Source: an uncultured Gemmatimonadaceae bacterium (GTDB lineage Bacteria; Gemmatimonadota; Gemmatimonadetes; Gemmatimonadales; Gemmatimonadaceae). From it: a stretch of DNA of 64,000 bases. Below, piece by piece: positions 395-63,963 of the stretch. The first letter of the stretch is position 1. Each line of letters begins with the position of its first letter. The notes under the pieces were generated by a model, which saw nothing but the letters and a program-made list of their open reading frames with translations, was not told the DNA's origin and made no database searches. Location of the stretch: assembly GCA_963829055.1 (NCBI GenBank), contig CAWHHI010000011.1:256001-320000 (forward strand), written 5' to 3'. A program made the position numbers and the translations under genes.

Positions 395-1698
395 ATGACC
401 TCCGCCGCACCCGATTCGCCAGCCTCGCGCGCCAGTCGTCCCTGGCGTTTTTCGCGCGCTCCGTCACCGGAACTATCGGCTGTTCTTCAGCTGGACAGAC
501 CGTCTCGCTCGTCGGCACGTGGATCACGCGCATCGCGACGAGCTGGCTGGTCTACCGTCTCACGGGTTCGGTGCTGCTTCTCGGCGTCGTCGGCTTCTTC
601 GGCCAGATCCCGACGCTGATTCTCGCGCCGTTCGCCGGCGTGCTCGTGGACCGCTGGAATCGGCATCGGATCCTGGTCGTCACGCAGGTGCTGTCGATGC
701 TGCAGTCGTTCGCGCTCGCGGGGCTGTCGTTCGCCGGCATCATCACGGTGCCGCGACGTGCTGCTCCTGCAGATGGCGCAGGGCATCATCAACGCGTTCG
801 ACACGCCGGCCCGGCAGTCGTTCGTCGTCGAGATGGTCGACGGACCGCGACGACCTGCCTAACGCTATCGCGCTCAACTCGTCGATGGTCAATCTGAGCC
901 GCGTGATCGGCCCGTCGATCGGCGGCGTGATCATCGCGGCGGTCGGCGAGGCGTGGTGCTTCTTCCTCGATGGACGTCTCGTACGTCGCAGTGATCGCGT
1001 CGCTGGTCGCGATGACGCGTCGCGATGCGCCCGCGCGAGCCGGCGACGACGCGCGATCAGCGAGGAGCTCGTCGACGGGTTCCGGTACGTGTCGCGCTTT
1101 CCGCCGGTGCGGTCCGCGCTGCTGCTGCTCGCGCTCGTGAGCACAATGGGAATGCCCTACACCGTGCTCATGCCGGCGGTGTCGCGACGAAAGTCCTGCA
1201 CGGCGACTCGCACACGCTCGGCTTTCTGATGACGGCGACCGGGATGCGGCGCCCTGGCCGGCGCGTTCTACCTCGCGTCACGGCGCACGGTTGTCGGACT
1301 TGGCCGCGTGATCGCGATCGCCGCCTGCACGTTCGGCGTCGGGCTCGTGCTGTTCAGCTTCTCGCGCAATCTCGTGCTCTCGCTCGTGCGTGCTGCCGAT
1401 CGCCGGCGCGGGGATGATGGTGACGATGGCGTCGACGAACACGGTGCTGCAGACGATCGTCGAGGAGCGGCTGCGCGGACGGGTGATGGCGTTCTACGCG
1501 ATGGCGTTTCTGGGTACGGCACCGATCGGGAGCCTGATCGCTGGCGTGCTGGCAGACCGCATCGGCCCGACGAATACCATCACGCTCGGCGGCTCGCGTG
1601 CATCATCGGCGGCATCGTGGTTCGCCGTCCGGCTCCCGAAGTTCCGCGCGCACGTGCGGCCGATCTACGTCGAGCGCGGTATCATTCCCGGGCCTTGA
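395..1698 (+). CDS. MFS transporter (frameshifted)
   Basis: Hydrophobic segments spread over three frames: GQTVSLVGTW, APFAGVLVDRWNRHRIL (MFS motif A), NAIALNSSMVNLSRVIGPSIGG, LRGRVMAFY. Confidence 0.85.
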
Positions 1699-1838
1699 TG
1701 GCCGGAAAGCCTGTAGTCGTTAGGCCCGTCCGGTCAGCAACATCGTTCCAGAACGTTTCAGGCGCGCATGGCACGAGTGTGCGTGCGGAAACCGGACGGG
1801 CGCGGCTGCCGTAGAGGAGCTACCTCGACAGGAAGCCC

Positions 1839-3816
1839 ATGCGCGTCAAGCTCTGGCCAACGCTGGTTCACATTCCAGCTGTGATGCTGGCGGTACTGTT
1901 GCCGGCAGGTGGCGCGCATGCCCAGACGGGCCCGTGTACGGCGCGGGTAGACTCGGCGTCGACAGCTCTCGACTCGGCGATCGTCGCCGCGATGCGCGAG
2001 CACGGCGTGCCCGGCGCTGCACTCTCCGTCGTGCAGGACGGACGAGTCACGTACATGGCAGGGTATGGCTGTGCGAACGTGGGCCGATCGATCGCGGTCG
2101 ACCCGCGACGTACCGTCTTTCACGTCGCGTCCGTGTCGAAGCCGTTCGTGGCGCTCGCCGCGGTTCAGCTCGCGACGCGCGGCGTCGTGGATCTCCGCAC
2201 CGACGTGAATCGCTACCTGCGCGGCATGCAGGTCGCGCCCGGCTGGGACCGGCCCATCACACTGCATGATCTCCTCACGCACACGGCGGGACTGGAGGAG
2301 AGCATCGTCGGCTACGCCGCGCGCACACCGGCGGACGTCCGCCCGCTCGGCGAGTTCCTCGCCGAAAAGCTGCCGCGTCGCGGTTGGGCGCCTGGCGACG
2401 TCACGGCGTACTCCAATTACGGCTACGCGCTCGCCGGGTACGTCGTCGAGTCGGCGGCCCAGCTGCCGTTCGCGGACTACGTGCGGACGGAGATCTTCGC
2501 GCCGCTCGGGATGTCGCGTTCGTCGTTCGCGCAGCCGCCACCGCCGGAGCTCGAGCGCGACGCCGCCATCTCGTACCGTTGCTCGAAGGCGGGTTGCGAT
2601 CCGATCGAGCCGGACTTCCGATCCGCCTATCCTCCGGGCGGTCTGGTGACGACGGCCGACGACATGACGCGGTTCATGTTGGCGCGAGTTGGGCGCGCCA
2701 GTCGATGGCAAGCGGGTGCTGAGCGATTCCGTGCTTCAACTGATGCACACGCGGCAGTTCTCGCACGATCCCGCCCTTCCAGGCCTGACGTACGGCTTCG
2801 CCGAGGACGACGTCGCCGGACAACGCGCGCTCTCTCACGCGGGCGGTGCGTCAGGATTCATGAGCTTCGTCGTGCTCGTCCCCAGTCGGACGCTCGGCAT
2901 GTTCGTGGTGACCAACGGCGGGTCATCACGATTCGGCGCGGCCGCGCTCGCAGCGATCGATAGCCTCATGGATCCGTCGCGCCCAGCGAGGCCTGCGGCG
3001 TCGCGCCTAACGACCACGCGCGACCGCCACCGATCCGGTCGGCGCGTACCGGCTGACGCGCTACGCACATCGCGGCATCGAGAACCTGCCTGCGCTGTTC
3101 AACGGCCAGCTGCACGTCGAGCGCGGCGCGGGCGACACGATACTGGTTGCTGGACTGGGCGACGCCGGCGGACGCGTACGTTCCGGTCACGCCCACGCTG
3201 TGGCGGCGTGTGAACGGAGCTGACGTCGCGGCCGTGCGAACACGAGATGGCAAGGTCACGCACTTCTTCGGCTCGCAATCGTTCTTCGGAACGCGGATCA
3301 CCGTCGGCGTTCGAGCGTCTCGCCTGGTACGACGAACCGCACTTTCTGAACGAGGCGCTGTCGTACATCGTCGCGATTCCGCTGCTCGCGCTGCTCGCAT
3401 GGCCGGTCGTCGCCGCAGTGGTTTGGCTGGTGCGACGCCGCACTCGATTGGTGAGCTCGCATCCGCCCGTCGGCGGGACCGACCAGGCGGGCGCTACGCC
3501 GTCGCGGCCGCGGTCGCGTTTTCTGCCATCGCCACGTGGTTCGGCTTCGGGTTCATCGCCGTGACCAATCGCGCGGCGGAACGTGGTGCCGGAGAGATTT
3601 TCTACGGCGTGCCGCCGATGCTGCGCGTGCTGGCGTGGGCGCCGATCGCGCTCGTCCTTGCTCGCGGTCGTTCTCGTCGCGGCTACGGTCATCGGCTGGC
3701 GACGCCGCTGGTGGAGCATCCCGGGTCTGCTGCTCTTCACGACAGTCACCGTGAATGCGGTGTTGTTCGTCGCGCTGCTCGTGCGGTGGGGATACTTCCC
3801 GTTGGCGACGGGATGA
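1839..3816 (+). CDS. Serine hydrolase (beta-lactamase/PBP-like) with signal peptide and C-terminal membrane segments (frameshifted)
   Basis: SxxK (ASVSK), LLTHTAG, YSN and HAGG motifs; hydrophobic C-terminal fragments end at 3816. Confidence 0.8.
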
Positions 3817-3855
3817 CCCGCTGGATCAGCAGGCACCCCGCCGCCTCCGTCGACC

Positions 3856-61743: not shown

Positions 61744-62190
61744 TCACTCGTCGGGGGCCGATCCGTTGCCACCGAGGTAACGCGACTCGGGAGGGCGCTC
61801 GGTCGCGTACGCATGTACGGTGTATCGGATGCTGCGATCCGCAGTCTCCTGGCGTTCGAGCCTGAACCCGGGTTCGTGCGGTGGGCGGGCTACGATGAAG
61901 CTGAGCGCGGTCGTCTGCCGGCCGTACGCCCGATCGTACGCCGTGACTTTCACGTAGCGGCCGGGAAACGCGTGCGTACACGCGGCGAGCTCCATGAGGA
62001 GGCCGGCCGGGTCGCGGAGATCGAACATCGGCGTGCCCCACATCTCCCAGTACACGTTGCGCGGGTGCGGGTCGTCGGTGTGCTCAATGGACACCGGCCA
62101 TCCCTGATCGATGCAGTATTGCACCTGAGCCGTGATCTGGTCGACGCTGAAATCCGGGAGGAACGAGAACGTCCCCTGTGTCAGGCGCAT
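61744..62190 (-). CDS. cbbS: RuBisCO small subunit, red type
   Basis: [33 protein letters not shown], red-type C-terminal extension [10 protein letters not shown]...[13 protein letters not shown]. Confidence 0.96.
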
Positions 62191-62236
62191 TGGCGGTCCT
62201 CCGGGAGGACAGAGTGGGCGTTAGGCATCGACATGC

Positions 62237-63688
62237 TCACAGCGGCACCGGCATCGCGACGGCGTCCGGCACGTCGGTGGACGTGAACTCGAACGTGATG
62301 TCCCGCCAGAGGTCGATCGCCTTGCGCAACGCCGGTGACCACCGCGCGGCGCGCTCGAGAATCTCCGGACCCTCCGCCAGGTAGTCCCGGCCCTCGTTCC
62401 GAGCCTGAATCATCGCCTCGACGGCGACGCGGTTCGCGGTCGCGCCGGCCGCAATCCCGTCCGGGTGGCCGATGGTACCGCCGCCGAATTGCAGCACGAC
62501 GTCTTCGCCGAGGTAATGCAGCAGCTGATGCACCTGCGCGGCGTGAATGCCGCCTGACGCGACCGGCATGACGCCTGGCAACGACGCCCAATCCTGCTCG
62601 AAGTACAGACCGAGCGTCGGGTCGGGGTCGATCTTGTTCTCGCGTAGCGTGCGATAGTAGCCGCGTACGGCGTGCGGATCGCCCTCGAGCTTCCCCACCA
62701 CCGTTCCCGCGTGGATGTGATCGACGCCGGCCAGGCGCATCCACTTGGCGATCACGCGGAAGTTGACGCCGTGATTCTTCTGGCGCGTGTACGTGCCGTG
62801 CCCTGCTCTGTGGAGATGGAGGATGACGCCATTGCGCCTCGCCCACTTCGCCATCGACTGGATCGCCGTGTAGCCGACGGTCAGGTCGATCATGATGATC
62901 ACGCTGCCGAGCTCCTTCGCGAACTCGGCGCGTTCGTACATCTCTTCCATCGTGCCGGCGGTGACGTTGAGATAGTGACCCTTGATCTCACCCGACGCCG
63001 CGACGCCGCGGTTGACAGCCTCCATGCAGTACAGGAAGCGATCGCGCCAGCGCATGAACGGCTGGCTGTTGATGTTCTCATCATCCTTCGTGAAGTCGAG
63101 GCCGCCGCGCAGCGCCTCGTAGACGACGCGGCCGTAGCTGCGTGCGGAGAGGCCCAGCTTCGGCTTCACCGTGGCGCCCAGCAGTGGCCGGCCGAACTTG
63201 TTGAGGTACTCGCGCTCCATGACGATGCCGTGCGCCGGCCCCTGGAACGTCTTTGCGTAATGCGGCGGGATGCGCATGTCTTCCAGCCGCAGCGATTTCA
63301 GCGCCTTGAAACCGAACACGTTACCGATGATCGACGACGTGAGGTTGGCGATCGACCCTTCCTCGAAGAGGTCGACGTCGTAGGCGATGTAGGCAATGTG
63401 CTGATCCGTGCCGGGAACGGCGTCCACGCGGTAGCATTTCGCCTGGTAGCGCTCGTAGCTCGTTAGGCGGTCCGTCCACACGACGGTCCACGTCGCCGTC
63501 GACGACTCGCCTGCCACGGCCGCGGCCGCCTCTTCGGGGTCGACGCCCTCCTGCGGCACGAGGCGGAACGCGCAGAGCACGTCCGAGTCGCGCGGCACGT
63601 ACTCGGGGTTGTAGTAGCCCATCTCGGCGTAGGGAGTAACTCCCGGAGCCCAGCGTCCCTTCGCCGCACGATCGCCAATCTTCGCCAT
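62237..63688 (-). CDS. cbbL: RuBisCO large subunit, form I red type (IE-like), 483 aa
   Basis: [51 protein letters not shown] (carbamylated Lys), [34 protein letters not shown]; no frameshift. Confidence 0.98.
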
Positions 63689-63963
63689 GTACGTCCTCTG
63701 CTGTGTGTTCGGCAGGCCGAGCGCTATGCGCGCGAACACGATCGCGCCGAGGGCGCGTTAGGACCACGCCCACTCTCGCGGGGAGTGACAGACGGATGGA
63801 GGGCTGGATGACCCACCCATTCGGTCCGATCACACCTGTTCGATCGGGTGGGGCCGTCCAGGTATCGAACTCACGACGCGCAGGCATCGAGCGAACCGGA
63901 GGGTATCCGGTATCTCGACGTACACCCTCGGTCGCTGAGTGCCGAGCAGTCAGTCGATGGGGT

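Follow-up and report, generated by a model that had tools for sequence, protein, structure and literature searches.

A dispersed octamer of Gemmatimonadota and Chthoniobacterales that resembles DNA uptake sequences

Uptake sequences, namely the ComP-read DUS of Neisseriaceae and the USS of Pasteurellaceae, are described in the accessible parts of the relevant reports as short non-palindromic words of point-mutational origin found about once per kb, on both strands and inside genes in several frames (PMC1939737, PMC3630211), with enriched near-miss variants (PMC1939737) and lineage dialects (PMC3630211). HIP1 of cyanobacteria (GCGATCGC) is, according to the available portion of its account, an exceptionally frequent octamer that is retained at orthologous sites more than codon conservation would explain, its function being unresolved (PMC5861425). 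Chi and KOPS are non-palindromic octamers over-represented genome-wide, and the core of integron attC sites is given as GTTRRRY in the part of the source at hand (PMC8876359). Here, we describe an octamer, CGTTAGGC, that appears to behave like the tags by which Neisseria and Haemophilus mark their own DNA for uptake: density, distribution over strands and in-gene frames, variants, dialects and origin by point mutation are all alike. The present word differs from those tags in spelling, in its occurrence in two phyla with patchiness within genera, in not being richer in conserved genes and in lacking a surplus of closely spaced inverted pairs, as judged in the genome under study (G000).

The window, that is, the whole stretch of 64,000 nt that was analysed, contains exactly 55 copies of the heptamer CGTTAGG (34 CGTTAGG and 21 CCTAACG on the plus strand, 0.86 per kb over 857..63763), as a preliminary description had counted by hand, compared to 2.73 ± 1.48 (maximum 6) in 100 dinucleotide shuffles. 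The octamer CGTTAGGC accounts for 44 of the 55, in line with the 'mostly' of that description, and its coordinates agree with ours, those on the minus strand having been counted from an additional G; its GC content of about 69% has to be corrected to 67.3%. The window samples a signal that spans the genome, in which 6,391 heptamers (3,237 and 3,154 by strand) occur at 0.64–1.09 per kb across all 20 contigs. As many as 5,004 of these are CGTTAGGC, versus 31 copies for three sister words summed, an excess of ~500-fold over sister words. The observed/expected ratio of the heptamer is 7.2, 25.7 and 8.9 under models of order 0, 2 and 3, and drops to 1.34 at order 4 and 1.04 at order 5, the latter values being low because 6,391 of the 7,392 TTAGG in the genome sit in the motif itself, which the high-order models absorb. 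The enrichment does not vanish, as a refutation would have required, under a codon-plus-next-residue null, with 2,997 octamers in 5,407 called genes against 118 expected (25-fold). The earlier claim that the signal is genome-wide and kept up at the level of DNA holds. The word is written through genes against the genome's own codon habits.

Copies wholly within called genes number 4,106 of 6,391 and occupy the four stop-free frames; another 559 are found at the edge of a gene, 528 of them at its stop, and 1,726 outside called genes, genes being under-called because of assembly frameshifts. The motif contains 1,613 of the 2,799 TTA codons, and CC precedes 370 of 981 TAA stops. Orientation relative to genes is nearly even (2,395 sense versus 2,270 antisense). 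Density peaks where constraint is low: it is 1.52 per kb in convergent spacers, 1.17 in tandem ones, 0.72 in coding sequence and 0.53 in divergent spacers; the word is enriched at the 3' ends of genes, and conserved genes (0.57–0.64 per kb) fall slightly below coding sequence overall. The word avoids neighbours within about 300–400 bp, the pair correlation rising through 0.29, 0.52, 0.79 and 0.94 over 0–400 bp (control words, about 1.1), and no periodic spacing is seen to 6 kb, the correlation being flat from 0.5 to 6 kb. In genome G422, exclusion is weak (0.71, 0.90 and 1.02 inside genes) and spacers hold tandem copies.

Copies arise by substitution and are conserved. In alignments with six congeners at 79–86% identity, 65 of 91 site comparisons were kept, versus 20–36% for all 7-mers, and TTA was kept in 43 of 56 cases inside the word versus 12 of 26 outside it. 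Within the window, CGTTAGGC is kept in 5/5 congeners at 23592..23598 (+); in 4/4 at 8281..8287 (+), 8979..8985 (-), 15534..15540 (+) and 29423..29429 (+, in an MFS gene); in 3/3 at 4254..4260 (-, in an L,D-transpeptidase gene), 11067..11073, 12400..12406, 16137..16143 and 28491..28497 (all +); in 2/2 at 4878..4884 (+); and in 1/1 at 7898..7904 (-). It is kept in 4/5 at 6577..6583 (-), 24851..24857 (+) and 27252..27258 (-), and in 3/4 at 29530..29536 (+), where the called ORF ends, probably after an assembly frameshift; CGTTAGGG at 13794..13800 (-) is also kept in 3/4. Retention is lower at 17156..17162 (+, 1/2), 16508..16514 (+, 1/3), 6233..6239 (-, 1/4, the rest with preferred codons) and 22154..22160 (-, 0/4 aligned), and lost sites in congeners mostly carry preferred codons. 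In genome G005, the copy at 858..864 (-) is kept and that at 3006..3012 (-) is not. Two copies are gains: that at 10257..10263 (+), a gain of the present lineage, is absent from 3/3 congeners and that at 26719..26725 (+) from 5/5, which have near-miss words instead.

Further copies of CGTTAGGC lie on the plus strand at 1718..1724, 18687..18693, 41705..41711, 42817..42823 and 55194..55200, and on the minus strand at 33333..33339, 37159..37165, 37460..37466, 43408..43414 and 48369..48375. Genes for a protochlorophyllide reductase subunit (47263..47269, +), Mg-chelatase H (49686..49692, -; 50907..50913, -; 52867..52873, +), PucC (56942..56948, +), a CbbX-like AAA protein (61693..61699, +) and the RuBisCO large subunit (63461..63467, +) contain the octamer as well; the copy at 59756..59762 (+) has convergent genes on either side and that at 62219..62225 (+) is intergenic. 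Variant octamers are CGTTAGGG in the PucC gene (57340..57346, +), CGTTAGGA at 28057..28063 (+) and, immediately upstream of the RuBisCO gene, at 63756..63762 (+), and CGTTAGGT at 38249..38255 (-), 39148..39154 (+), 40362..40368 (+, in the glutamyl-tRNA reductase gene), 42241..42247 (+), 44427..44433 (-) and 54874..54880 (+). A rare close pair is formed by CGTTAGGC at 30859..30865 (-) and CGTTAGGA at 30877..30883 (-), 18 bp away.

Near-miss words are enriched over the codon-aware null in a graded way (CGTTAGGT 12.7-fold, TGTTAGGC 7.5-fold, CGTTATGC 5.8-fold, CGTTAGGG 4.9-fold), with C>T variants enriched at both ends of the word. Among 185,579 species scanned, dispersed copies are confined to Gemmatimonadota and Chthoniobacterales, and to only some members of each, the latter using the dialect TCGTTAGGC: T precedes the word in 83–97% of copies in nine rich Chthoniobacterales and in 15–33% in 15 rich Gemmatimonadota. 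The distribution is patchy within both phyla; for instance, G294 has 66 copies, whereas the other three sampled members of its genus have 3,479–4,141. Comparison of 84% of a Chthoniobacterales genome with the present genome yielded no shared reader. A literature search found no description of the word, which apparently is undescribed, as had been stated; the second phylum, carriage by phages and identity with the attC core had been overlooked.

The best reading, which we advance tentatively, is that of a tag of the uptake-sequence kind, propagated through a bias in DNA acquisition. We infer a putative sequence-specific protein that would bind double-stranded YGTTAKGB, best as CGTTAGGC and in Chthoniobacterales as TCGTTAGGC, on DNA under uptake or passed to recombination. 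Word-bearing fragments would replace chromosomal alleles more often, so that word-making mutations would spread and word-breaking ones be undone (molecular drive) wherever the encoded protein tolerates the word; one site per fragment may be enough, and a second within about 300–400 bp would therefore gain little. The 25-fold excess, site retention, lack of palindromy and polarity, strand symmetry, graded variants, dialects and the density peak at low constraint are all consistent with such a tag, as is the short-range exclusion, for which a noisy one-site-per-fragment model fits best at 300–400 bp, although a weak 1,000-bp version is nearly as good, the model is unspecific for uptake and exclusion is weak in G422 with its tandem spacer copies. 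Against the tag stand the slightly lower density in conserved genes and the sharing of one word by two phyla, odd for a self tag. ComEC is intact in 48/48 genomes examined and ComEA is found in 5/5, rich and poor alike; thus, competence genes leave the patchiness unexplained. ComP is unsupported as the reader, PF16732 scoring above the profile cut-off in 0/23 rich genomes and 1/14 poor ones, and no pilin head domain common to G000 and G422 was found; the proposed USS receptor is reportedly ComN.

Letter for letter, the word is also the attC end in relatives, and it fits the GTTRRRY core. The attC left ends of the present genome (GCCTAACG, ACCTAACG and GCATAACG) are the three most enriched variants, and the G422 attC array ends in TCTCGTTAGGC, that genome's own dialect. 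The reader might be IntI or an IntI-derived protein, and the word would then be driven through the genome as isolated cores on incoming DNA are bound or undergo strand exchange; in the available parts of two sources, IntI is described as acting on single-stranded DNA during transformation (PMC12614218) and on attG sites of the genome (10.1101/2022.09.11.507474). Whereas IntI is present in 21/25 rich or intermediate genomes and the word often supplies the stop codon, like cassette ends (the TAA after CC noted above), 8/9 poor genomes carry IntI too, 24/41 relatives have it above the cut-off whatever their load, and attC arrays with a terminal T are not confined to rich genomes. Only about 20–25 of the 6,391 copies in G000 (<0.5%) are true attC sites, >99.5% being isolated, lacking inner boxes or a hairpin. 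The degeneracy of GTTRRRY is not mirrored, as the attC variants that IntI tolerates (CGTTAGAC, CGTTAGCC, CGTTATAC, CGTTAGAT and CGTTGGGC) are not enriched, and the attG consensus is just GWT. Cutting would, moreover, be expected to purge a site rather than spread it, and the single full IntI of G000 looks degenerate, carrying K>D and H>R at residues that do not vary among six relatives and that we take to be catalytic. IntI as the reader is improbable and not sufficient to explain the word. A broader version, in which the word is the integron core in genome-wide use, read on incoming DNA by IntI or an IntI-derived binder so that two unrelated soil lineages would share one capture code, is quite improbable; if true, chromosomes, which bear roughly one core per gene length and often use it as a stop codon, as cassettes do, would be a source of new gene cassettes, tying cassette origin, to our knowledge an open question, to a visible genome signature.

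An artefact of sequencing or codon usage, for which the indel errors of the assembly might speak (e.g., a split rpoB and fragmented genes in the window), is refuted and retains practically no probability: congener assemblies, themselves fragmented, show the word at the corresponding positions, it occurs in the named PacBio records of the cultured Gemmatirosa kalamazoonensis KBS708, so that the base-calling error considered earlier is excluded, and four reading frames made of rare codons also argue against it. Of the four analogies drawn in the preliminary description, those with DNA uptake sequences and nucleoid-protein sites stand, whereas those with methylase/HIP1 sites and Chi are unsupported. 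A HIP1-like methyltransferase site amplified by methyl-directed repair would account for the C>T variants at both ends, as expected from 5mC deamination; yet tolerance is graded at several positions, unlike that of a methylase, PF00145 (5mC methylase) is missing from 16/23 rich genomes, and the KBS708 methylome lists only RGATCY, ATGCAC and CCAGN7TCA (PMC3974934). Unlike HIP1, the present word is non-palindromic and aperiodic, and this explanation is extremely unlikely. The idea that a helicase-nuclease is stopped by the word as by Chi, with no polarity since breaks would result from desiccation rather than fork collapse, fits a non-palindromic, phage-borne octamer and the AddAB-type genes of G000, G422 and G421, but is very unlikely: 449 of 854 copies about dif are on the leading strand (52.6%, p = 0.14), whereas the KOPS-like word GGGNAGGG in the same contig is oriented (112/125). 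The word is likewise unrelated to GC skew (rho 0.06 and -0.01). AddAB-type genes are also found in the poor G294, the rich, 100% complete G305 yields only a weak short match (five genomes examined), and AddA of G000 and G422 share patchy 28–31% identity. Somewhat unlikely is a selected intracellular site, bound every 1–2 kb on resident DNA by a nucleoid or 'licensing' protein for structure, supercoil handling or shielding from a host system directed against DNA without the mark. Conservation and short-range exclusion would be expected if spacing were selected, an argument made for HIP1 in the available part of that study (PMC5861425), and the enrichment between convergent genes and the tandem arrays in G422 spacers also agree, whereas the lack of periodicity and the close relatives that manage without the word (G294) do not. 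TopIB, the one sequence-reading candidate tested, is unsupported: 13/43 rich or intermediate genomes lack it, among them G422 and G324 (the latter 100% complete), and 15/32 poor ones have it. Plasmids and phages would acquire an intracellular site because they benefit too; both Gemmatirosa megaplasmids are loaded (0.7–0.8 per kb), and a few phages carry the word at host-like or higher loads, virion genes included (87 copies in 82 kb versus 10 for the control, 27 in 50 kb and 22 in 46.5 kb). However, the readable phage lifestyles are temperate (2/3 motif-bearing records checked), which suits the uptake tag, and the phage load may therefore be amelioration. One phage fragment, unpredicted by uptake drive, has 24 evenly spaced copies in 7.1 kb (3.4 per kb, P = 0.0006), exceeding every host seen.

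The heptamer CGTTAGG (hereafter the word) occurs 55 times in the window, 34 times on the forward and 21 times on the reverse strand, in agreement with the hand tally of the preliminary description, whereas dinucleotide shuffles of the window yield 2.7 copies. The octamer CGTTAGGC accounts for 44 of the 55. The source genome (G000; 7.78 Mb, 20 contigs) contains 6,391 heptamers and 5,004 octamers, with a density of 0.64-1.09 per kb on all 20 contigs, and the flanks of the copies are uninformative, save that C is disfavoured immediately 5' of the word. Its lineage is probably Gemmatimonadaceae, judging by its best plasmid matches, which are to Gemmatirosa, and by the named carriers of the word. 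A loss of the enrichment under codon-aware models had been named as a refuting outcome. The enrichment withstands a null that preserves every residue together with its next residue, with 2,997 octamers observed across 5,407 genes versus 118 expected. Markov models give observed/expected ratios of 25.7, 8.9, 1.34 and 1.04 for orders 2, 3, 4 and 5, respectively, the last two being low because TTAGG is almost absent outside the word. The three sister words CHTTAGGC together have 31 copies in G000 and 15-25 in each of four other genomes, rich or poor in the word, a scarcity that puts the real excess at about 500-fold. The enriched variants conform to YGTTAKGB, and CGTTAGAC, CGTTAGCC, CGTTAAGC, CGTTATAC and CGTTGGGC show no enrichment in G000. 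Thus, the word is a strong, real signal.

Base-calling error, raised as a concern at the outset, does not account for the sites, given that the same ones recur in congeners and that the word is present in the plasmids of the cultured Gemmatirosa kalamazoonensis KBS708: plasmids 1 and 2 carry 34 and 30 octamers, respectively, in 42 kb each, and no sister words. Across window positions 1-40 kb, the exact heptamer is kept in 65 of 91 aligned site comparisons with six congeners (79-86% identity), against a background of 20-36% for all 7-mers. In these comparisons, sites come and go by substitution, the alternative state being a preferred codon in most cases. In a raw, uncontrolled comparison, divergence is slightly lower within 500 bp of sites (0.154-0.161) than beyond (0.177-0.183), which bears on a possible mismatch-repair signal.

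Within called genes, G000 carries 4,106 copies, in four stop-free frames and equally in sense and antisense orientation; the word accounts for 58% of the TTA codons, and 528 copies overlap stop codons. Density is 0.72 per kb in coding DNA versus 0.57-0.64 per kb in genes conserved with another phylum, and in spacers it reaches 1.52, 1.17 and 0.53 per kb between convergent, tandem and divergent genes, respectively. The pair correlation rises through 0.29, 0.52, 0.79 and 0.94 in successive 100-bp bins and is flat thereafter; this short-range depletion also holds inside long genes and is not seen for control words. In G422, a word-rich Chthoniobacterales genome from a second phylum, exclusion within genes is weak and spacers contain tandem copies. 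Both G422 and a phage have head-to-tail and 10-23-bp spaced runs of the word in their spacers (L148:7160-7222, L080:18864-18896, L166:8712-8894 and L266:12571-12607). The suggested analogy with Chi, which called for a check of replichore polarity, is not borne out: around the dif site on contig C16, 449 of 854 copies are on the leading strand (p=0.14) versus 112 of 125 for GGGNAGGG. This dif site, near C16 560,800, adjoins a Xer gene and has polarised GGGNAGGG on both sides; it is ordinary, and its relevance to the word was rejected.

All six congeners carry 3,403-6,707 heptamers, and G014 carries 9,004. Among 400 genomes of the phylum, at least 400 octamers are found in 12 of 93 from the same family, 4 of 166 from a second family (one genus only), 0 of 5 from a third and 0 of the remaining 136; the congener and phylum denominators include one unpublished genome (G013), as poor, on which no conclusion depends. 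Genus g46 is divided, with 3,479-4,141 copies in three genomes and 66 in a fourth. A triple-word scan that covered 185,579 species genomes, and that may overlook weaker carriers, returned 39 loci, namely, 16 from Gemmatimonadota, 22 from Chthoniobacterales or Verrucomicrobiae and one from Azonexus, whose copies number just three and are attC-like. Within the order to which G422 belongs, at least 400 copies are present in 9 of 151 genomes. The Chthoniobacterales form, TCGTTAGGC, makes up 83-97% in 9 rich genomes versus 15-33% in 15 rich Gemmatimonadota. The matching sequencing runs listed are of small share only, with no RNA run among them; four runs that were examined yielded contigs of relatives.

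Six or more octamers are present in 15 of 149 viral loci, which were chosen by word pairs, a choice that inflates small counts but not the high phage totals. Five loci from four phages have dispersed copies on both strands, and the remainder are local or same-strand arrays. Octamer totals in whole phage records are 87 (82 kb), 27 (50 kb) and 22 (46.5 kb), and two of these three phages are temperate (integrase or provirus class). A 7.1-kb phage fragment carries 24 copies at even spacing. Three triple-word scans of viruses returned 8 loci, none of which added another host-type carrier. In phage contigs L211, L233, L248, L256 and L384, attC-like short repeats recur on the same strand every 250-400 bp between small genes and are possibly phage-borne cassette arrays. 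A different repeat, CGTTAGGA, is clustered in 15 copies on both strands of a phage (L393:5109-6288; L394 likewise).

Candidate readers of the word were compared with its distribution. ComP is found in 0 of 23 rich genomes, and ComEC and ComEA in all genomes tested. A 5mC methylase is absent from 16 of the 23. The methylome method applied to KBS708 detects 5mC poorly. Its methylome comprises three motifs, all other than the word (PMC3974934), so that the proposed likeness to a methylase site is disfavoured. Type IB topoisomerases occur in 30 of 43 rich or intermediate and 15 of 32 poor genomes; all seven genomes of the source genus have two such genes (C4:50478-51122 and C19:85120-85710 in G000). 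AddAB is inconsistent across the five genomes compared. We compared 2,438 genes from 2.68 of 3.18 Mb (84%) of G422 with G000 (86% complete), the joint chance of a shared single gene lying in both data sets being ~0.7. About 1,000 had matches; for proteins of at least 50 aa outside multi-copy families, the top 170, the low-copy lists and most weak matches were inspected by eye, and 44 unclear proteins were searched against Pfam. Among the inspected matches, no DNA-binding protein was conspicuous for transfer-like identity. A 205-aa protein (1 of 5 genomes, missing from rich G305), a 231-aa protein (occurring in poor G294 and G016) and a 189-aa protein (present in 12 of 23 rich and 3 of 14 poor genomes) were rejected. 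The last (L110:3467-4036) has no Pfam family, is common in Gemmatimonadaceae and, of the 12 Chthoniobacterales tested, occurs in two, each of them rich; it was likely transferred between the two phyla. Primase sites and telomere repeats were dropped, as sites arise by substitution; the DnaG proteins of the two phyla are not notably similar (35%), which also counts against the former. Shared non-coding RNAs of G422 and G000 were limited to tRNA, rRNA and one REP-like inverted repeat, TGTCATCC...GGATGACA (L058:4613-4793, L083:17202-17464 and many G000 spacers). G422 also contains ORFs with what we take to be a RAYT transposase motif.

The few copies in poor G027 are attC ends within cassette arrays. 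The left ends of an array in G000, GCCTAACG, ACCTAACG and GCATAACG, are the three top genomic variants, and an array in G422 ends in the dialect of that genome. This match is too exact to ignore. The same end occurs in unrelated hosts and phages, and the core therefore does not come from these two lineages. G000 has only ~20-25 true attC sites, of which ~15 lie in a scattered cassette region (C20:95000-209000) beside a full-length IntI that, judging by its changed conserved residues, looks inactive; half an IntI is located at C4:2850-3239. One cassette is common to G422 (L061:3461-3898) and G000 (C20:96806-97213), with 73.5% nucleotide identity. IntI is encoded in 21 of 25 rich or intermediate and 8 of 9 poor genomes, T-ended attC arrays are found in poor genomes too, and IntI alone leaves the rich/poor pattern unexplained.

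A maintained signal exists; each mechanistic step beyond that we infer. A word that is graded, strand-symmetric, dialect-forming and born by substitution is the expected trace of a binder on DNA pieces. Such a protein would leave the word behind as it acted, one copy per few hundred bases sufficing on each piece. The best reading, to which we give just short of an even chance, is a tag for biased DNA uptake, which yields such a pattern with no benefit per site (PMC1939737). An intracellular structural or licensing binder would explain the phage loads better than uptake and the patchy distribution worse, and seems unlikely on balance. A reader related to IntI would account for the spelling and the two-phylum convergence, and IntI is reported to act on transforming DNA (PMC12614218) and at genomic sites whose GWT consensus is loose (10.1101/2022.09.11.507474); we nevertheless regard such a reader as improbable.

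The word works like DUS/USS and HIP1 yet belongs to neither, ComP being absent in the one case and palindromy and a methylase in the other; it also lacks the polarity of Chi and KOPS and the structure of attC. To our knowledge, genome-saturating words this strong comprise only two uptake-sequence families and cyanobacterial HIP1. Searches with lineage or motif terms, which covered few subscription papers, returned nothing relevant, and the word is apparently unpublished. Thus, one word spans parts of two soil phyla, their plasmids and some phages, with no recognised reader, which the cultured carrier KBS708, together with a genus that includes both rich and poor genomes, should make findable. 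If an uptake tag, it would imply sequence-gated gene flow in unsuspected lineages, possibly across phyla, and offer a handle for genetic tools. Whatever its reader, it points to hosts of unassigned phages and flags foreign or misassembled blocks in carrier genomes.

Window positions 40290-63739 encode bacteriochlorophyll synthesis and assembly proteins and, after these, phosphoribulokinase, a CbbX-like ATPase and the RuBisCO large subunit, likely a photo-autotrophic module; blastn found no such block in five congeners, and the word is at its usual density there (44-64 kb). Word-free blocks at contig ends (C6:5440-55038, C11:1-44055 and C6:591808-623330), with genes that by eye look Acidobacteria-, Rhizobium- or Chloroflexota-like, are possibly chimeric assembly. 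Stop-codon read-through is unsupported in the window, where the truncated genes coincide with indels. Frameshift-type assembly errors split rpoB (C19:47991-52509) and many genes in window positions 1-40 kb.
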